DNA from: Deltaproteobacteria bacterium
GTDB taxonomy: Bacteria > Myxococcota_A > Polyangia > Polyangiales > Houyiibacteriaceae
Direction of reading: 5' to 3'
Assembly: GCA_004283055.1 (NCBI GenBank)
Contig: SHLP01000006.1
Coordinates: 5,131 to 69,130 of the forward strand
Length of the DNA stretch: 64,000 nucleotides
Below, one piece after another: positions 4,067 to 51,895 of the stretch. The position numbers were made by a program, and so were the translations under genes. The notes under the pieces are model-generated. The model had not been told where the DNA came from. It saw only the letters and a program-made list of their open reading frames with translations, and did not search any database. The first letter of the stretch is position 1. Each line of letters begins with the position of its first letter.

Positions 4067-5328
4067 CAACCGCCCTCGAAACCTGTCTCCAGGGCGTCAC
4101 GGCCGAGATTCGCGCGATCCTCGAGCAAAGCCTCGACGGCGATGAGCTCAGCATCGAGCACGGCGTGAAGCTCAGCGGTGCACGGGGCAGCGATCTACAG
4201 GCCCTGTGCATGGTTGCCGACGAGCTCCGACGACAGCAAGTGGGCGACCGAGTCACCTACGTGATCAACCGAAACATCAACTTCACCAACGTCTGCATCA
4301 AGAACTGTAAGTTCTGCGCGTTCGCACGCAGCGTCCGTTCGGAGCAAGGTTACTTCCTTCCCAAGGAAGAGGTCGTACGGCGTGTAGTTCAAGCCTGGGA
4401 GATGGGCGCCACCGAGGTCTGCCTGCAGGCCGGGCTCTCGCCCAACCTCACAGGCGACAGCTACATCGATCTCTGCCGAGTGGTGAAGGATGCCGCGCCG
4501 GAGATTCATATTCATGCCTTCTCGCCCGAGGAGGTGAAATTCGGCGCTTCACTCAAGCGCGTTTCGTACGCGGAGTATTTGACGGAGCTACTCGATGCCG
4601 GCCTAGGGACCCTCCCTGGCACCTCGGCCGAAATCCTGGACGACCGCCTTCGCAAGACGATTTCACCGACGCGAATCACGACGCGCGAATGGCTCGACGT
4701 TGTTACCGCCGCCCATCGCCTGGGCATCCGAACGACATCGACCATGATGTTTGGGCACGTCGAGTCCGTCGAGGACCGCATTCGCCACATGGACCTTCTG
4801 CGAAGAGTGCAGCGAGAGACAAACGGGTTCACCGAGTTCGTTCCGCTCTCGTTCGTCCACGAGGAGGCTCCGCTTTTCGCAGCGAGCCAGGTGCCCGGGG
4901 TTCGTCCGGGGCCCACGGGTGACGAGGTGCTGCGGCTCTACGCAACGGCGCGCCTCATGCTCGGCCGAGACATTCCAAACCTTCAAGCGTCGTGGGTCAA
5001 AGAAGGCCTTCGGACCTCGCAGCTCTTACTCGGCTGCGGGGTGAACGACCTCGGCGGGACATTGATGAATGAAAGCATCTCCACGGCCGCTGGTGCGCGC
5101 CATGGGCAGCTGATGAGCCCGGCGACCTTGCGCAGAGTCATTCGAGACTCAGGGCGGGTGCCGGTGCAGCGCGATACGAGCTACGGTACGATCCGCGAGT
5201 TCGGGGACTCACCCGATGAGGACCCGATTGAGCCCCTCGATTCGATCCGAGATCCGGATGCAGTGTTTGGCTCGTACGATGCGCTGACCATGGACTCGCG
5301 CTTTCACTACGAGCCGCGCTCGGTCTAG
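4063..5328 (+). CDS. cofH: FO synthase subunit 2 (radical SAM)
   Basis: 421-aa ORF with an ATGA overlap to cofG. Radical-SAM motif CIKNCKFCAF. CofH/MqnC-like pattern. Confidence 0.85.
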   Translation: MTTALETCLQGVTAEIRAILEQSLDGDELSIEHGVKLSGARGSDLQALCMVADELRRQQVGDRVTYVINRNINFTNVCIKNCKFCAFARSVRSEQGYFLPKEEVVRRVVQAWEMGATEVCLQAGLSPNLTGDSYIDLCRVVKDAAPEIHIHAFSPEEVKFGASLKRVSYAEYLTELLDAGLGTLPGTSAEILDDRLRKTISPTRITTREWLDVVTAAHRLGIRTTSTMMFGHVESVEDRIRHMDLLRRVQRETNGFTEFVPLSFVHEEAPLFAASQVPGVRPGPTGDEVLRLYATARLMLGRDIPNLQASWVKEGLRTSQLLLGCGVNDLGGTLMNESISTAAGARHGQLMSPATLRRVIRDSGRVPVQRDTSYGTIREFGDSPDEDPIEPLDSIRDPDAVFGSYDALTMDSRFHYEPRSV

Positions 5329-5354: not shown

Positions 5355-5951
5355 CTAGCGTCGCCGTAGTCGGTCGAGGTCGGACGGCCGGTCGACGTCG
5401 AATCCGATGGTGCTGCTGATCTGAATGCGAACGGTGAGACCGAGTCTGCACGCGCAGGCATGATGTCGGTCGAGGCTGTCCTCGTGTCCGAGGCAGCTTG
5501 GTAAGGCAGTCGCCGGCTTGACGGCGATGACATTGGTGCCTCGCTGCGCGAGGTCGGGCACCAGCACGACGTCGCTTTCCTCGAGTTGGCGCACCACGCG
5601 AGCAACACCGTCTACCGTCAGCTCCGGGAGGTCGCTCATACAGATCAACACGCTCGTCGCGCCGCGATCCTTCAAATCCTCGAGCGCTCCGTCAACGACC
5701 TCGGCCAAGCCTCGGCTTCCTGGGGCATCCGCGAGCGCTAGCGCACCCAGCCCCTCGGCGAGCTCCCGAGCTTGGGCGGAGTCGCTCACCGCGGCGATGG
5801 CGTCGATGTCCGGGGATGCCCGAAGGACCCGCACCACGTGTTCAAACAATCCGCGCGCCAACTCGGCGCGCTCGGCCTGCCCCAGCACTTCCGAGAGCCT
5901 CGACTTGCCTCGGTCGAAACTCTTGATGGGAACTAACGCCCAGCGGCTCAT
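5355..5951 (-). CDS. cofC: 2-phospho-L-lactate (or PEP/3PG) guanylyltransferase
   Basis: 198 aa. It shows the N-terminal [16 protein letters not shown] motif, SDLPEL and a GTN motif typical of CofC/FbiD. It has a 4-nt overlap with cofD. Confidence 0.75.
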
Positions 5952-6883
5952 TTCAGTTTCCGCGCGAACGCGATCAGCTCGCCGGCAAAGCGTACTCGAT
6001 CATCTATGGTTTGAATGTGTACGTTCGTTTCGAGGGTCGGGTAGGGCGCCTCGAAGGAATCTCCCGGGTGAACAGCGTATCCACCGAGCAGGTCTTCGTA
6101 GTGCGCCGCTACGGCCTCGGCCGAAGGCGGGCGCCCGTCGATCTCCGAAATCATCGCGGCGAGCGGGCCCTTGACCGCCTTGCCACCCAGAATCGGGCTC
6201 ACCGCAACCGTCGGCTTGAGCCGAACCGCTTCTTTTATTCCCGTCAAACCCAGGATGGGATCGATCGAAACGTAAGGGTTCGAAGGGCAAATCACGATCA
6301 AATCGGCGAGGTTCAGGGCATCGACAACCGAGCGGGTCGTTTCACCGCTGCCCCCGTGGCGGACGTTGCTCACCGGAAGCGCCGCCCGCTCCTTCACGAG
6401 CCACTCCTGAAACGCGAGCTCCTCGCCGCGCCTAGTGAGGATGGTCGTAGGACATGGCTCATCGCTCATCGGGAGAATCGGCCGCTCGACTCCGAGGGCT
6501 TTGCACAGGGTTGCAGTCGTTTGCGTGAGCGACTTGCCTCCCGACATAGCTTTCGTTCGGAAGAGGTGCGTGACCAGATCGCGGTCGCCGAGTTGAAACC
6601 AGTCGTCGACGCCGCGGCGCCTCGCTTCGCCCAGGACTTCGAATGTGTCGCCGCCGATTCCCCAGCCGCGGTCTTCGGGAGCAAGACCTGCGAGGGTGTA
6701 CATGACCGTATCGAGATCAGGGCTTATGTGGAGGCCCCAATGCTCGAAGTCATCGCCGGTGTTCACAACGGCCGTGAGCGAGCCTGGGGGGAGCACGCGA
6801 TCGAGCCCGTCGATGAGCCTCGCGCCGCCGACGCCTCCGGCCAGCGCGACGACAGACAGACCGTTCTCAGAACCGCCGGTCAT
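5948..6883 (-). CDS. cofD: LPPG:FO 2-phospho-L-lactate transferase
   Basis: The start was moved to the internal ATG at 6883, which forms an ATGA overlap with the cofE stop. N-terminus [13 protein letters not shown]...[26 protein letters not shown]. Confidence 0.85.
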
Positions 6884-9413: not shown

Positions 9414-9438
9414 AAAAAAGGGGACAGTCCCCTTTTTG
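9414..9438. other. Perfect palindrome AAAAAAGGGGAC-A-GTCCCCTTTTTG (terminator-like hairpin) in a divergent intergenic region
   Basis: Read directly from the sequence. The GGGGAC/GTCCCC arms are flanked by an A-tract and a T-tract. It lies 8 nt upstream of the LLM start codon at 9405. Confidence 0.6.
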
Positions 9439-16344: not shown

Positions 16345-16486
16345 GGGGACACGCTCCCTCTCTAAAACCTGCATGGTTCCCGATGCTTCGGACGCACAGC
16401 GCGAAAACCCGCTCGGACCTGGGTTTTCGCGGTGCGGGCCTTAAGTCCTTGAAAACGTGAGATTATTTGGGGTGGAGCGTGTCCCC
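16345..16486. repeat. REPIN-like element: two inverted ~66-nt REP units (GGGGACACGCTCC ... GCAC.CCGCGAAAACCC)
   Basis: The termini GGGGACACGCTCC (16345-16357) and GGAGCGTGTCCCC (16474-16486) are perfect inverted repeats. An internal hairpin is CGCGAAAACCC/GGGTTTTCGCG. The same unit occurs at 48614, 49342 and 50100-50162. Confidence 0.8.
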
Positions 16487-46667: not shown

Positions 46668-47833
46668 CCCGGGCAGTGACTCGAGAGACGAGCGAGGATA
46701 GGGCCCCTTCTCTCCTTTTGAACGAAGAGCAGAAGATGCTCTCGAAGACGGCCCACGATTTCATTCGTTCCCGAGGCCCTGCTGCGCGGATTCGGAGCTT
46801 TCGAGACTCCGGCGATGAAGTCGGGTTCTCCCGCGAGCTCTGGGGTGAGATGGCGGAGCTCGGCTGGCTTGGTCTACAGATCCCCGAGCGATATCAGGGA
46901 ATGGGGCTTGGCTTTTTCGACCTGGCCGTCGTTCTCGAGGAAAGCGGGCGCGAGCTGATGCCCGAGCCCTTCGTATCGACTTTGTTGCTCGGCGCCCAGG
47001 CGCTTCTTCTTGGCGGCAGCGAGCAGCAGAAGAGGGCGCTGTTGCCTGGGGTTGCTGCCGGGGACACGCTCGTCAGCGTCGGATACGAGGAAGCTGGCCG
47101 CCAAGGAGGCGCGTCTCTCCCCGCGATGCTTGCGAACGAGTCCGGCGATGGCTTCGAGCTCAGCGGTGAGAAGCTGCATGTCCTAGATGGACACATGGCA
47201 GATCGAATCATCGTGTCGGCGGCAACTTCGAGCCATGGATGCACGCTATTTTTGATCGATCCGGCGCAGCCGTCCGTCACCGTCACTCGGCAGTCGCGAA
47301 TCGACGGGTTGAGCTCAGCCATCGTGCGACTTGAAGGTGTGCCGGTGAAGCGCGATGCGATGGTCGGTGAGCTGGATGCCGGCGCAGCTCTCTTGGAAGC
47401 GGTTTTCGATCGTGCGTCTGTGGGCCTTGCGGCGCAGATGCTTGGAGCTTCGGAGCAGGCGTTTGCTGACACCATCGACTACATCAAGGAACGCGAGCAG
47501 TTTGGCGTCCCCATTGGCTCATTTCAGGCGCTTCAGCATCGCGCAGTATCCGTCTATACCGATATCGCGCTGACGCGTTCGGTCGTCCTTGCCGCCGCAA
47601 GGGCGGTCGACGAGTCGCCCGTGGAAGTCCCGCGCCTGGCTTCTCTCGCGCAGGCGATGGCGTCGGACACCTTCATGCACGCGGCAAAAGAAGCGATTCA
47701 AATGCACGGTGGGATCGGAGTCACCGATGCACACGACATTGGTTTCTACATGAAGCGAGCACAAGCAAGCTACATGATGTTTGGAACGCCTGCTCAGCAC
47801 CGGAAGCGTTGGGCAGAGCTCCACGGTTACTAG
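46664..47833 (+). CDS. Acyl-CoA dehydrogenase family protein (partner subunit type)
   Basis: ATGA overlap with the preceding ACAD. C-terminal MHGGIGVTDAHDIGFYMKRA. Confidence 0.8.
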   Translation: MTRAVTRETSEDRAPSLLLNEEQKMLSKTAHDFIRSRGPAARIRSFRDSGDEVGFSRELWGEMAELGWLGLQIPERYQGMGLGFFDLAVVLEESGRELMPEPFVSTLLLGAQALLLGGSEQQKRALLPGVAAGDTLVSVGYEEAGRQGGASLPAMLANESGDGFELSGEKLHVLDGHMADRIIVSAATSSHGCTLFLIDPAQPSVTVTRQSRIDGLSSAIVRLEGVPVKRDAMVGELDAGAALLEAVFDRASVGLAAQMLGASEQAFADTIDYIKEREQFGVPIGSFQALQHRAVSVYTDIALTRSVVLAAARAVDESPVEVPRLASLAQAMASDTFMHAAKEAIQMHGGIGVTDAHDIGFYMKRAQASYMMFGTPAQHRKRWAELHGY

Positions 47834-47861: not shown

Positions 47862-48614
47862 ATGAAAAGGTTTGAGGGAAAGAACGTGGTGATCACCGGC
47901 GCGGCGGCGGGCATCGGCCAGGCCACCGCTCAGCGCATCGCCGAGGAGGGTGGCAACGTCGCTCTCATCGACATCAATGCGGAGGGGATGTCAGCCACGA
48001 AGCAGCTCGCGGAAGCGCAGGGAGTCAAAGCCTGGGTCTACGAGTGCAACGTCACGGACGGCGCTCGCGTCAGAGAGGTCATCGACCAAGCTTCGCTCGA
48101 CATGGGCGGCTTCGACACTCTGTGTCACTGCGCGGGCATACTTCGCACCTATCATACGCACGAGATGACGTTTGATCAGTGGCATGAAATCATCGATATC
48201 AACCTCAACGGCACGTTCTACGTGAACCACGCCGCGCTTCCACATCTTCTGAAGAATCGATTCAGCGCGATTGTGAACTGCTCATCGACGTCGGCGCTCG
48301 GCAGCCATCCTTGGATGAGCGCGTACGCAGCGTCGAAGGGCGGGATCCTCTCGATGACCCGAGCCCTGTACCAAGAGTACGTGAAGCAAGGCCTCCGAGC
48401 GAACTGCATCGTCCCTGGCGGCATCGCGACTTCCCTGCACGGCGATTTCAAAGCCCCCGACGGCGCCGACATGGAGCTACTCAAAGGCGCGATGCCCTTC
48501 GTAGGCTTTGCCAAACCCAAACATGCGGCATCGGTCATCGCATTCCTAGCGTCCGACGACGCCCGCTACATCAACGGCACCGAAATCCGAGCCGACGGCG
48601 GCGCCCTCTCCTAG
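47862..48614 (+). CDS. SDR family oxidoreductase
   Basis: The internal ATG at 47862 gives MKRFEGKNVVITGAAAGIGQA. YAASK motif. The TAG stop overlaps the first base of a REP unit. Confidence 0.8.
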   Translation: MKRFEGKNVVITGAAAGIGQATAQRIAEEGGNVALIDINAEGMSATKQLAEAQGVKAWVYECNVTDGARVREVIDQASLDMGGFDTLCHCAGILRTYHTHEMTFDQWHEIIDINLNGTFYVNHAALPHLLKNRFSAIVNCSSTSALGSHPWMSAYAASKGGILSMTRALYQEYVKQGLRANCIVPGGIATSLHGDFKAPDGADMELLKGAMPFVGFAKPKHAASVIAFLASDDARYINGTEIRADGGALS

Positions 48615-48677
48615 GGGACACGCTCCCCCTCCAAAACCCTCTTTATTACGGGTGCCTAGGTGGCACACCGCGAAAAC
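48614..48677 (+). repeat. REP unit (solo, left-end orientation): GGGGACACGCTCC...CTAGGTGGCACACCGCGAAAAC
   Basis: It aligns with the units at 16345, 16486 (reverse complement), 49342 and 50162 (reverse complement). Confidence 0.75.
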
Positions 48678-48708
48678 CGCAGGGCTTGTTGTGCGTGCGA
48701 CGACCGGG

Positions 48709-49341
48709 TCAGCTCTTGTCGCGGGCAAGCTCCTGCACGCGGAGAAGAACGCTCGCGTCAACCTTGTGCAGCGCACCGGCATCGTGCGGCGGTTGAGGGT
48801 CGTACTCGATCATTAGCTGCAAAGCTTGAGCGGTCGTTACATCCGTGAGCTGTTCGGCAAGATGCAATGCCATGTCGATCCCGCTTGAGACTCCGGCGGC
48901 TGTGATGATCTTGCCTTCCTGAACTATGCGCTCCTCGGTCGGAACAGCGCCGTACTTCAGCAACATGGGTCGCGCGGAGAAATGGGTCGTGGCCTTCTGT
49001 CCTTTGAGCAGACCGGCAGCAGCAAGGAGCAGGGACCCTGTGCACACAGAGGTCGTAAACCGACTCGTCTCATGGGCCCTTCGAATCCAATCGAGAATCA
49101 CACCATCGTGCACCAGCGCGCGAGTCCCAATCCCACCTGGAATCAAGACTATGTCGGGGGCGGTCACCTCACCGAAGGTGCAATCGACCATCAGGCCCAA
49201 GAATCCATTGTCGGTCCGAACTTCTCCCTTGCGATGCCCGACAAAACGAACTTGGGCCCCGGGAAGACGCTGCAAGACCTCATAGGGCCCAACTGCATCG
49301 AGCGCCGTCACCTGCTCAAATATCGCCACCGCAATTTCCAT
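48709..49341 (-). CDS. DJ-1/PfpI family protein (type 1 glutamine amidotransferase-like)
   Basis: 210 aa. MEIAVAIFEQVTALDAVGPYEVL and the nucleophile elbow SVCTGS. Its start codon abuts the REP unit at 49342. Confidence 0.8.
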   Translation of the reverse strand: MEIAVAIFEQVTALDAVGPYEVLQRLPGAQVRFVGHRKGEVRTDNGFLGLMVDCTFGEVTAPDIVLIPGGIGTRALVHDGVILDWIRRAHETSRFTTSVCTGSLLLAAAGLLKGQKATTHFSARPMLLKYGAVPTEERIVQEGKIITAAGVSSGIDMALHLAEQLTDVTTAQALQLMIEYDPQPPHDAGALHKVDASVLLRVQELARDKS

Positions 49342-50162
49342 GGGGACACGCTATACCCCGAAAAACGAAGAGATAACAAGCAGCTAGGTGGTGCACCGCG
49401 AAAACACAACTTTCGGCGGGCTTGGTCGACAACGATCCCATGCCCCGTCTGCCCCGAAATCTCGCGGTCGCTCCGCACCAGCCACATCATGTCATTTTGA
49501 GAGGCAACAATCGTCGGCGCCTTTTTTCCTACCCTCGCGAGAAGCACTTTTTTCTAAGTCGTCTAATGCAAGGCAGCCACAGACAGAAAGTCCCGGTGCA
49601 CGCCGTCACGTTGATGAGCAATCATGTACACCTCATCGCCACACCGTGTGACCATCTTCAGCTTTCGCGGTTCGTTCGTCACTTTGCTCAACGATACGCG
49701 CAGTTCCGAAACGCGAGTCGTGGAGCGACCGGGAAGCTATTTGAGCAACGGTACAAGTGCGTTCCGATCCTCACCGATGAGCAAATGGCGATTACCACGG
49801 CGTATGTTGAGCTCAATCCAGTACATGCAAGGATTTGCTCAGAGCCAGAAGCGTATCGTTGGTCGACGTATCCGCAGCACGCAGGGTACCGAGCGCACGA
49901 GCCGCTCATTTCACAGCTGTGGAGTCCAAGCGCTTGGTACCAATCCCTTGGGAGCGACCCGAACCAAAGAGCTGCCGCGTTTCGTGATTGGTTTGCCTAC
50001 TACCGTGCGCGCGACGATTGGGCTGAAGTCTATCCAGATCCAGCATCTCCCAGCGACCGCAAGCGGTTCGAACGTCCCGATCGGAGCGGCGCAACATGAG
50101 TTTTCGCGGTGTGCGACCTAAGTGTTGGGAATGAAAGTGGTTTTCGGGCAGGAGCGTGTCCC
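49342..50162 (+). mobile_element. RAYT gene flanked by inverted REP units (REPtron-like, 821 bp)
   Basis: The left unit (49342-49405) and the right unit (50100-50162, inverted) share the terminal GGGGACACGCT/AGCGTGTCCC and the subterminal GCACCGCGAAAAC/GTTTTCGCGGTGTGC. Confidence 0.75.
49440..50099 (+). CDS. REP-associated tyrosine transposase (RAYT; IS200-like Y1 HUH transposase)
   Basis: HUH motif SNHVHLIATP and catalytic Tyr motif TTAYVELNPV. ATG 49440 is preferred over TTG 49422. The stop codon abuts the right REP unit. Confidence 0.8.
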   Translation: MPRLPRNLAVAPHQPHHVILRGNNRRRLFSYPREKHFFLSRLMQGSHRQKVPVHAVTLMSNHVHLIATPCDHLQLSRFVRHFAQRYAQFRNASRGATGKLFEQRYKCVPILTDEQMAITTAYVELNPVHARICSEPEAYRWSTYPQHAGYRAHEPLISQLWSPSAWYQSLGSDPNQRAAAFRDWFAYYRARDDWAEVYPDPASPSDRKRFERPDRSGAT

Positions 50163-51895
50163 TAGGGCAGGTGGCCGCGGACGAAGGGTAGGTACGTTGG
50201 GTGCCAAAAGCGTTCTCGGACGAAGGACTCGATGTCTTCGGGGATATTCGCTCGGCGAGCGACGCCGTCGGCGATGGCTTGTTGGACTACGGCGGTCGCC
50301 ACGCGGACAGAGGTTTCTTGGAGGTCGTTGACCGGTGGGTAGATCAGACCCCCTTCGACGTATTTCTCGATGGTGTAGTCGGCGAGGGCTTGGGCCGCGC
50401 GCAACACCATGTCGTCCGTGATCGACTTGGCGTCGCTCAGGATCGCCCCGAAACCGAGCCCTGGAAAGATGAAGGCGTTGTTGCCCTGGCCGATTGGGTG
50501 AGTGACGCCGCCCATCATGACCGGATCGAAGGGGCTTCCGGTTGCGACGATCGCCTTGCCGTCCGTCCAGCGAAAAATATCGACGGGTTTGGCCTCGGCC
50601 GAGCTCGTGGGGTTGGAGAGCGGGAAGATGATCGGCCTCTTGTGATTTTCGGCCATTGCGCGGACGACTTCCTCATTGAAGGCGTCTGGTCGACCCGACA
50701 GGCCTAGAAGAACGGTCGCTCCAGCATTGCGAATAGTATCGACGAGGTCAGGCGTGTCGCCGTCGAACTTCCACTCTCGGGTGATTGTGCGGTCATGCGT
50801 GAAGTCGCGCTTGTATTCCTCCATGTCGCGGTCGCTCATCAGCAACCCACGGGAGTCGAGCACGAACACGCGTGCTTTCGCTTCCGCGCGGCTCAATCCT
50901 GCCTGAACCAAACCCTCGCGAATCGCCCAGGCGACGCCAACCCCGCCTGCGCCGGCGCCGTGAATGACGAAAATCTCGTCTTTGAGGCTCTCGCTGCGCA
51001 GGTGACAGGCTGCCAGGATGCCTGCGAGAGCCACTGCCCCGGTTCCCTGAATGTCGTCATTGAATGACGGGCCGCGCTCGCGATAGCGTTCGAGGACTGT
51101 GAAAGCCGCGGTCTTCGAAAGGTCCTCCCACTGAATGACAGCGTCGGGCCAACGGGCCCAAACCGCGTCGACGAATTGGTCGAGAAACTTGTAGTAATCG
51201 TCACCACGAAGCCGCTTCTGACGAACCCCCAAGTAGTTTGGGTCATTGATCAGATCCATCCGGTCGGTTCCCACATCGAGCGCCACTGGCATCGTGTGAA
51301 AGGGACTGACGCCGCCGCCAACGGTGTAGAGGGCCATCTTTCCTATCGGTATCGCCAGGCCACCGTAGCCTTGGTCGCCGATCCCGAGAATTGCCGAGGA
51401 GTCCGTCGCCACGATCATGCGGACGTCTTCCATGGGGTAGCATTCGAGCGTTTGATCGGCTCGATCGATGTTCAAGGGCGAATACGAAAGACCCCGGGGG
51501 TTCTGGTATAGCGCGCTGAACTGCTGCACCGCTGCGCCGACGGTCGGCGTGTAGACGATGGGCAGCATCTCGTCGAGGTGCTTTTCGAGTAGCGCGTAAA
51601 AGAGAATCTCTTGCCGCTCCTGGACGGCGCGAAGGTACTGGTACTTGTCGATGTCGGTCGGTGCCTGGACGAAGCCCTCGTAGACGCGTTCGATCTGCTG
51701 TTCGAGCGTGTTGTACTGAGGTGGAAGAAGGCCGCCAAGCCGAAGCGCGACGCGCTCTTCGTAGCTGAAAGCCGTTCCCTTGTTGCTCAGCACCAATCTC
51801 AGAAGCGCGATCCCATCGAGAAAGACCTCCATGTACTGGCGTCCGTGGTCGTCCTCTTTGATATCAAACAGGCGGCTAATGCGTTTACGGGGCAT
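50162..51895 (-). CDS. maeA: NAD-dependent malic enzyme
   Basis: 577 aa with the malic enzyme pattern (VYTPTVGAAV, VTDSSAILGIGDQG, FNDDIQGTGAV, HGAGAGGVG). Confidence 0.88.
   Translation of the reverse strand: MPRKRISRLFDIKEDDHGRQYMEVFLDGIALLRLVLSNKGTAFSYEERVALRLGGLLPPQYNTLEQQIERVYEGFVQAPTDIDKYQYLRAVQERQEILFYALLEKHLDEMLPIVYTPTVGAAVQQFSALYQNPRGLSYSPLNIDRADQTLECYPMEDVRMIVATDSSAILGIGDQGYGGLAIPIGKMALYTVGGGVSPFHTMPVALDVGTDRMDLINDPNYLGVRQKRLRGDDYYKFLDQFVDAVWARWPDAVIQWEDLSKTAAFTVLERYRERGPSFNDDIQGTGAVALAGILAACHLRSESLKDEIFVIHGAGAGGVGVAWAIREGLVQAGLSRAEAKARVFVLDSRGLLMSDRDMEEYKRDFTHDRTITREWKFDGDTPDLVDTIRNAGATVLLGLSGRPDAFNEEVVRAMAENHKRPIIFPLSNPTSSAEAKPVDIFRWTDGKAIVATGSPFDPVMMGGVTHPIGQGNNAFIFPGLGFGAILSDAKSITDDMVLRAAQALADYTIEKYVEGGLIYPPVNDLQETSVRVATAVVQQAIADGVARRANIPEDIESFVRERFWHPTYLPFVRGHLP

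Follow-up and report, generated by a model that had tools for sequence, protein, structure and literature searches.

A RAYT-like transposase gene framed by inverted 64-nt units, and the dispersed family of these units, in an uncultured Myxococcota genome

The transposase gene and the units around it

The DNA analysed here (the window, 64,000 nucleotides (nt) in length) corresponds to positions 5131-69130 of contig C82 from the draft genome of an uncultured member of the Myxococcota (G000; 4.31 Mb, 293 contigs, 63% G+C), whose nearest public relatives, labelled Polyangiaceae, Myxococcales or Myxococcota, were metagenome-assembled genomes. We focused on a gene located at 49440..50099 on the plus strand (stop codon TGA at 50097-50099; alternative TTG start of the open reading frame (ORF) at 49422), which encodes a HUH/Y1 tyrosine transposase of 219 amino acids (aa). 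This protein resembles the RAYTs, the tyrosine transposases associated with repetitive extragenic palindromes (REPs), and is of the TIRYT type described below. Its neighbours were genes for a DJ-1/PfpI protein, a short-chain dehydrogenase and a malic enzyme.

As proposed in the original prediction, the gene was framed by two inverted copies of a repeated unit; this unit was 64 nt long. The left unit (49342..49405, plus strand) was characterized by an outer end, GGGGACACGCT, that abutted the ATG with which the minus-strand DJ-1/PfpI gene starts (CAT at 49339-49341), and by the inner end CACCGCGAAAAC. In the right unit (50100..50163, minus strand), the inner end followed on directly from the stop codon of the transposase gene and the outer end overlapped the TAG (50162-50164) that terminates the malic enzyme gene on the minus strand; the last base of the unit completed AGGGACACGC.

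Three further units were present in the window. One was a solo unit (48614..48677, plus strand), whose first G also served as the last base of the TAG (48612-48614) that ends the upstream short-chain dehydrogenase gene. The other two formed an inverted dimer with its outer ends pointing outward, composed of a first unit (16345..16408, plus strand; a profile match, with an orthologous dimer in genome G042), a 14-nt spacer (16409..16422) and a second unit (16423..16486, minus strand), whose outer end contributed the G to the TAG that stops the flanking gene on the minus strand. All five units were thus found where they had been predicted, and only the end of the right unit was shifted, from 50162 to 50163. 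When the five were aligned, 30 of the 64 columns were invariant. A sixth GGGGACACGCT, at 47060, was rejected as a chance match, being located within a coding region with the rest of the unit missing. An Rfam scan of positions 48400-50400 gave no match at E ≤ 1.

The ORF was intact, with the HVH and YVELNP motifs announced for its product, and matched the Pfam family Y1_Tnp (PF01797) with 37.6 bits, against a cut-off of 23 bits. The HUH motif corresponded to H62-V-H64 and the catalytic tyrosine lay within Y122-VELNP; H62, H64 with the intervening valine, and Y122 were invariant in alignments. The same was true, in alignments of 12 and 43 sequences, of Y122, N126 and P127, which make up Y---NP, the signature of all class-2 (TnpAREP-like) proteins (PMC6006769). 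A search of the Protein Data Bank with the single sequence returned no relevant match; when a profile built from the protein together with its relatives was compared with solved structures, the best match was TnpAREP of Escherichia coli (4ER8, 30.6 bits), and ISDra2 TnpA scored 28.8 bits. The AlphaFold (AF2) model of the transposase had a mean predicted local distance difference test score (pLDDT) of 85.5 and a predicted template modelling score (pTM) of 0.82. Its best fold match was again 4ER8, which aligned over 159 columns with E = 2.2e-6; for the transposases of IS608 and ISDra2 the alignment covered 111-135 columns, and the top 30 fold matches were all Y1 transposases. The C-terminal tail of 75 aa (residues 145-219) was predicted by the model to be helical up to about residue 191. 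The protein is an intact, RAYT-like class-2 Y1 transposase.

The unit family in the host genome

The original prediction left it to a genome-wide count to decide whether the repeat was dispersed or confined to this locus. The strict pattern GGGACACGCT-N40-48-CGCGAAAAC had 20 matches in the genome and none for the reversed control. A profile search with nhmmer gave 28 matches at E < 1e-3, corresponding to 27 distinct units at 20 loci on 17 contigs, as two of the matches were one copy split across a contig join. The family was thus dispersed, and it comprised six inverted dimers, thirteen single units and the two arms of the transposase gene. All six dimers had their outer ends outward, with spacers of 14, 14, 14, 35, 51 and 58 nt; the 14-nt spacer was also seen at other loci and in other species. 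Unit length was 64 nt throughout, or 66 nt where the inner end was extended by C-C/G, as it frequently was.

Units were numbered from 1 to 64, with positions 1-13 referred to as the outer end, positions 53-64 as the inner end and the positions between them as the core. Both ends were conserved in unit alignments (gGGGACACGCTCC for the outer end and GCACACCGCGAAAAC for the inner end). The consensus of the outer terminus was GGG(G)ACACGCTCC(CC), preceded on its 5' side by a (T)A tag, and that of the inner terminus was GCACACCGCGAAAAC(CS). The core, of about 38 nt, was fast-evolving and constant only at an A-tract, T32-T33, C35 and T43-T44.

The base preceding the G-run was an A in 49 of the 59 units with known flanks and the preceding dinucleotide was TA in 30 of them, although TA represents 1.4% of the dinucleotides of the genome. 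TA together with the first G made TAG in these 30 units, and the full GTAG was seen in only a few. Since TA stands ahead of the G-run in half of the units, these are abutted by the TAG stops of neighbouring genes: 13 of the 27 outer ends were located no more than 7 nt from the stop codon of a real-looking gene, and nine of these 13 stops were TAG, with its G usually being the first G of the unit (binomial p = 0.016, with TAG accounting for 36% of the stops of long ORFs as the baseline). The same supply of stop codons to neighbouring genes has been reported for GTAG-tagged REPs (PMC3733652). Four outer ends were 0-6 nt from a start codon. A Shine-Dalgarno role, with GGAG 9 nt before the abutting ATG, was considered and rejected as a general rule: it fitted a few units but failed at the DJ-1 gene next to the left arm.

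The unit did not fold as a REP would. Among 144 distinct units of the genus, the mean minimum free energy was -11.0 kcal/mol, versus -10.7 kcal/mol for column shuffles (p = 0.33), and in a mutual information analysis of the same units the strongest pairs were adjacent columns, with no Watson-Crick covariation. The only recurrent pairing was a hairpin of 4-5 bp that the outer end could form (GGGGA-CACGC-TCCCC). Because it is 64 nt long, folds like column shuffles and lacks Watson-Crick covariation, the unit is not a REP, and this label of the original prediction had to be abandoned. These results also bear on a first alternative explanation, that of a classical REP/REPIN-RAYT system, in which the units would be palindromic REPs and the doublets REPINs, replicating as a population under a RAYT of Bertels group 2 or 3. 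Such a system would account for the six inverted dimers with their recurring 14-nt spacer and for a single-copy, syntenic gene, and the TAG tag resembles the GTAG tag of REPs (PMC3733652). However, the units were not self-complementary, no near-identical copies were found in G000, and the true palindromic REP of this genome (AAAAAGGGGACWGTCCCCTTTTT) belongs to another RAYT-like gene, on contig C95. We therefore consider this explanation to be very unlikely.

The gene on contig C95, which is the more distant of the two, encodes a protein of 217 aa that scored 75.7 bits against the NCBIfam model of RAYTs. It was framed by a perfect palindrome, AAAAAGGGGAC(A/T)GTCCCCTTTTT, with copies at C95:8832 and C95:9564. 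The 13-nt core of this palindrome was present in 40 copies in the genome, versus none for four composition-matched palindromes; the copies were often paired 35-40 nt apart, and one was located in the window, at 9417-9435. This second system looks like a classical REP/REPIN-RAYT, and its palindrome could serve as a two-way terminator. A GGGGAC core was common to the palindrome and the outer end of the 64-nt unit, which supports reading that end as the recognition element.

Inheritance of the gene and conservation of the units across the genus

Orthologues of the transposase were identified in G023, G005, G024 and G042 (83-87% identity) and in eleven further congeneric genomes (54-68% identity). 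At every orthologous locus that was read, including those of G005, G023, G024, G042, G001, G007 and G012, inverted units framed the gene at equal spacing; such flanks accompany the orthologous gene in at least 15 congeneric genomes. The left-arm unit was observed at the orthologous position in G005, G023, G024, G042 and G017, and the orthologous copy of the solo unit was in place in G005, G024 and G042 but absent in G023. The transposase was the sole gene of its clade in G000. Among four orthologues, the pairwise ratio of nonsynonymous to synonymous changes (dN/dS) was 0.10-0.14, with synonymous differences (pS) of 0.42-0.54. The gene is under purifying selection and vertically inherited, and its locus is syntenic across species; neither of the findings that the original prediction named as speaking against it applied, the ORF being intact and the repeat dispersed.

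This constancy of the locus is relevant to a second alternative, in which the units would belong to a miniature inverted-repeat element as its ends, an unrelated DDE transposase (one duplicating TA, for example) would move this element, and the association of the units with the Y1 gene would be incidental. One dimer on contig C252 and one in G005 did have TA or CTAG on both sides, and an IS30-like element was found adjoining units. Nevertheless, duplication of a TA or CTAG target site was rejected as a general rule, with TA present on both sides in only one of the six G000 dimers; a search of the whole assembly revealed no inverted pair of termini at insertion-sequence distance other than the arms of the Y1 gene, so that no other gene was framed by them, and no DDE partner with such termini was found; the arms were kept around this gene at all orthologous loci examined; the terminal motif was common to homologues from another phylum; and the IS30-like element interrupted units instead of being bounded by them. 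We regard this explanation as extremely unlikely.

The constraint acting on the units was assessed at orthologous sites that were located through their flanking genes, so that a search by unit ends could not bias the result. Substitutions affected 56 of 775 end positions (7.2%) versus 322 of 1209 core positions (26.6%), in comparisons that are not independent and two of which include a disrupted or replaced unit, inflating the figure for the ends. The fourfold lower rate indicates that both ends were held constant in place while about 45% of synonymous sites changed.

Within G000, the mean identity of a unit core to its nearest neighbour was 0.64, versus 0.634 ± 0.009 for column shuffles, and none reached 0.8. 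A population of near-identical doublets, the REPIN structure for which the original prediction proposed to check, was therefore not found in this genome. Several G000 units were closer to their positional orthologues in other species (identity of up to 0.90) than to copies of their own genome. Near-identical copies were held by G042, G046 and G047, and the consensus sequences of the inner end differed between species, which points to lineage-specific spread of the units. The truncated unit at C268:13049-13122 came from a dimer, intact in G005 and G042, that had lost 108 nt internally; this deletion removed the TAG stop codon of the convergent gene, whose lengthened ORF crosses what remains of the unit and overlaps the opposite gene at its 3' end.

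The same data were considered in the light of a third alternative, namely that the units are now mainly immobile host elements, such as sites for a nucleoid protein like integration host factor (IHF), or signals in 3' untranslated regions or operon spacers, and that the transposase is kept for another task. The conservation of the ends and of a few core positions at orthologous sites fits this view, as do the lack of recent copying in G000 and the placement of units, which lie between convergent or co-directional genes precisely where these end. The A-tract of the core followed by TTTCAAnnnnTTR also resembles the IHF consensus WATCAANNNNTTR, and this is offered as a lead only. On the other hand, the copy number varied from background to 131 among congeners and the inner ends were species-specific, which points to lineage-specific spread; and units were lost by deletion without visible replacement. 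Overall, this explanation appears unlikely, although less so than the two others.

We also compared the number of units with the presence of the gene. Units were counted across genomes with a fixed-length pattern allowing three mismatches, for which the background in the control was 0-4, and the number of matches per congeneric genome ranged from this background to 131. Congeners may also contain a paralogous clade of the transposase (44-51% identity), which was present in many of them and absent from G000, and which was framed by a different repeat sharing the GGGACACGCTCC terminus. At least 10 units were found in 13 of the 16 genomes with the orthologous (clade-A) gene and in 2 of the 16 genomes with the paralogous clade only; these counts are descriptive, the genomes being related to each other. 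In G017 (stretch G017:C218:20500-24500, with unit sequence at its positions 1347-1410 and 1406-1446), the left arm was intact, 35 nt of the right arm remained and the ORF between the two was cleanly deleted; the DJ-1 and malic enzyme genes were kept, and the genome had eight pattern matches, versus three in the reversed control. Units were thus numerous mainly in genomes having the gene.

Comparison with known systems and further repeated elements

In 2013, Di Nocera, De Gregorio and Rocco described RAYT-like genes with long terminal inverted repeats, and not REPs, on both sides; they called the genes TIRYTs and the loci TIRtrons, and examples are ORFs 1152 and 4509 of Stenotrophomonas maltophilia K279a and ORF 1552 of Koribacter versatilis (PMC3733652). 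Many TIRYT inverted repeats share GGGGWSAS, and in some species single and dimeric copies make up families of moderate abundance (PMC3733652). The units described here begin with GGGGACAC, which fits this motif, also written GGGG[AT][CG]A[CG]. Outside the genus, the nearest protein relatives of the transposase were from Oxalobacteraceae (35-40% identity), and their genes were framed by inverted GGGGTCAGAGTC or GGGGACAGAGTC, often with TA or TT before; the inverted motif of these homologues can be written GGGG(T/A)CAGAGTC. Betaproteobacterial homologues were flanked by GGGGTCAG or GGGGACAG, which correspond to GGGGWSAS. Because the start of the unit fits GGGGWSAS and the homologues are framed alike, the system belongs to the known TIRYT/TIRtron kind.

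It shares with described TIRtrons a RAYT-like gene, long inverted repeats that are not stem-loops and start with GGGGWSAS, and a moderate family of singles and dimers, the comparison with published TIRtron repeats being made on this motif only. It differs from them by its host, an uncultured member of the Myxococcota, by a fixed unit of 64-66 nt with a second conserved (inner) end, by the TA(G) tag and the abutment of stop codons shown here, and by the conservation in place across species measured here. The original prediction had presented the family as previously unnoted. This particular family, in uncultured Myxococcota, does appear to be undescribed, but its kind is known (PMC3733652, PMC6006769). 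The system thus extends the TIRtron kind to uncultured Myxococcota and leaves knowledge of the kind itself unchanged.

In a later classification, 20 of 26 TIRYTs were assigned to subclass 2.1, with GGGG[AT][CG]A[CG] in their flanking repeats; this subclass contains 291 of 292 sequences that PMC5581495 places in RAYT Group 1, its proteins are reported to have a C-terminal helix-turn-helix (HTH)-like extension (Bac_DnaA_C, HTH_23 or HTH_28), and no REP-like DNA was found for it (PMC6006769). The present system resembles subclass 2.1 and RAYT Group 1 in its Y---NP signature, low copy number and GGGG[AT][CG]A[CG] flanks, and the 27 units of the family are on a scale similar to that of the 16-mers flanking Group 1 genes, which occur about 12 times per replicon (PMC5581495). 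Unlike subclass 2.1, it has a 75-aa tail, modelled as helical, that had no HTH match in Pfam, and a clear cognate repeat family.

With E. coli TnpAREP (RayT/YafM; 4ER8), the transposase has in common an aligned HUH motif and tyrosine, a single gene copy and a frame of inverted cognate repeats, although the two proteins are only about 14% identical. As in E. coli REPs and the bacterial interspersed mosaic elements (BIMEs) they form, tagged repeat ends can give neighbouring genes their TAG stops; however, E. coli REPs are palindromes of 20-40 nt with a GTAG tag, and the units described here are 64 nt long and non-palindromic, with a terminal hairpin of at most 5 bp. The HUH/Y1 fold, and presumably the single-strand chemistry, are shared with the TnpA transposases of the IS200/IS605 family (IS608, ISDra2). 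Members of that family are multi-copy and belong to class 1, without Y---NP; the whole element is mobile and its ends are not inverted repeats. In contrast, the gene studied here is single-copy and syntenic, with inverted arms.

Taken together, these data indicate that the locus is probably a TIRtron, consisting of a domesticated, single-copy, vertically inherited class-2 Y1 (HUH) transposase of the TIRYT type and a cognate family of 64-66-nt units. RAYT-like proteins rank with the most common domesticated transposases of bacteria, and this locus represents a compact case, with defined repeats, constrained ends, shared stop codons, a genus in which the number of repeats ranges from background to about 130 and one clean gene deletion.

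Several observations weigh against this interpretation. The protein scored 52.8 bits with NCBIfam NF047646 (REP_Tyr_transpos), a model built on canonical RAYTs, and thus fell short of its equivalog cut-off of 80 bits; for this reason the RAYT label of the original prediction was retained only in the form of a RAYT-like class-2 Y1 protein with Y---NP, and not of a canonical RAYT. Moreover, the Pfam scan detected no C-terminal HTH, as reported for subclass 2.1, in the transposase. The invariance of the G-run makes covariation uninformative on the proposed outer hairpin. At least 10 units were also present in 5 of the 23 genomes with neither gene, these five being 66-90% complete. There was no sign of recent copying in G000, because no two unit cores were closer than expected by chance, and current activity is unsupported in that genome.

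In G042, the near-identical copies were located at the ends of larger repeat mosaics, so that what is copied there may be a larger, non-autonomous element using the unit as its terminal repeat. In one such mosaic (G042:C701:950-2050), two inverted units were about 470 nt apart and separated by an internally inverted spacer. In addition, no clean empty site was found when 15 loci were compared with G005, G024, G023 and G042. The candidates were rejected for various reasons: at C267, G024 and G023 had undergone a deletion that spared 10 nt at the outer end; G023 had another sequence in place of the intergenic segment at C89; at C211 and C60 the neighbouring sequence differed (a HAD-like hydrolase gene, or an AT-richer segment of 866 nt); and the young G042 copies, when compared with G000, lay within larger mosaics and none was clean.

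The biochemistry of E. coli TnpAREP and of IS608 TnpA is established for those two proteins. By analogy with them, the enzyme of the TIRtron would most likely bind the outer terminus of the unit in single-stranded DNA, and would cut and rejoin beside the junction of TA and the G-run; units or dimers would in this way be copied or moved, with the gene itself staying put. We infer this mechanism wholly from the analogy, the sequence data giving association, constraint and inheritance. A candidate recognition site of 13-15 nt is suggested, the unit termini being TAGGGGACACGCTCCCC and GCACACCGCGAAAACC.

A further proposal, which we put forward with more doubt than confidence, is that both unit ends are kept by ongoing sequence-specific selection at fixed sites, the outer end being a (T)A-tagged GGGGACAC mini-hairpin akin to the palindromic REP that accompanies the paralogous RAYT in the same genome. 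If so, and if the transposase belongs to subclass 2.1, this subclass, the largest of the RAYT-like groups and one whose cognate DNA structure has yet to be identified, would gain a defined substrate. The congeners with and without the gene, including the one with a clean gene deletion, would then constitute a natural test bed.

Other repeated elements were observed alongside these systems. An IS30-like element, whose ORF begins with an HTH_38 domain, was inserted at the outer end of units at three loci, where it replaced GGGGACA (G000 C15:~12134 and C39:~12371, and G023:C133:~5485-6570; contigs end inside the element). This location recalls insertion sequences whose targets are REPs.

Another six Y1-like ORFs (302-410 aa), forming two groups of three similar copies, were located at C14:2528-3436, C31:136-1044 and C4:2611-3519 (minus-strand coordinates) and on C152, C292 and C254. 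They exhibited HEH or HSH in place of HVH, together with Y---NP, and may represent a multi-copy branch that is more insertion-sequence-like. These paralogues, of about 302-410 aa, were rejected as alternative mobilisers of the units, as their flanks lacked inverted GGGGWSAS termini; the copy on C152 had a lone GGGGWSAS motif on its downstream side.

Another repeat, about 210-320 nt long and with GGGGCGCGGAAAAAAGCGCGATAYGGGG as its inverted ends, was observed at C194:~150-370, at the end of C140, at C252:100600-100803 and at many contig ends, where it breaks the assembly; it looks like a separate, high-copy miniature element. Finally, long runs of repeated hexanucleotides (GCTGGC, ACTGAC, GCTGTC) adjoined several units and repeat mosaics (C24:~4130-4260, C252:100500-100600 and C252:101240-101400) and matched many places in related genomes.

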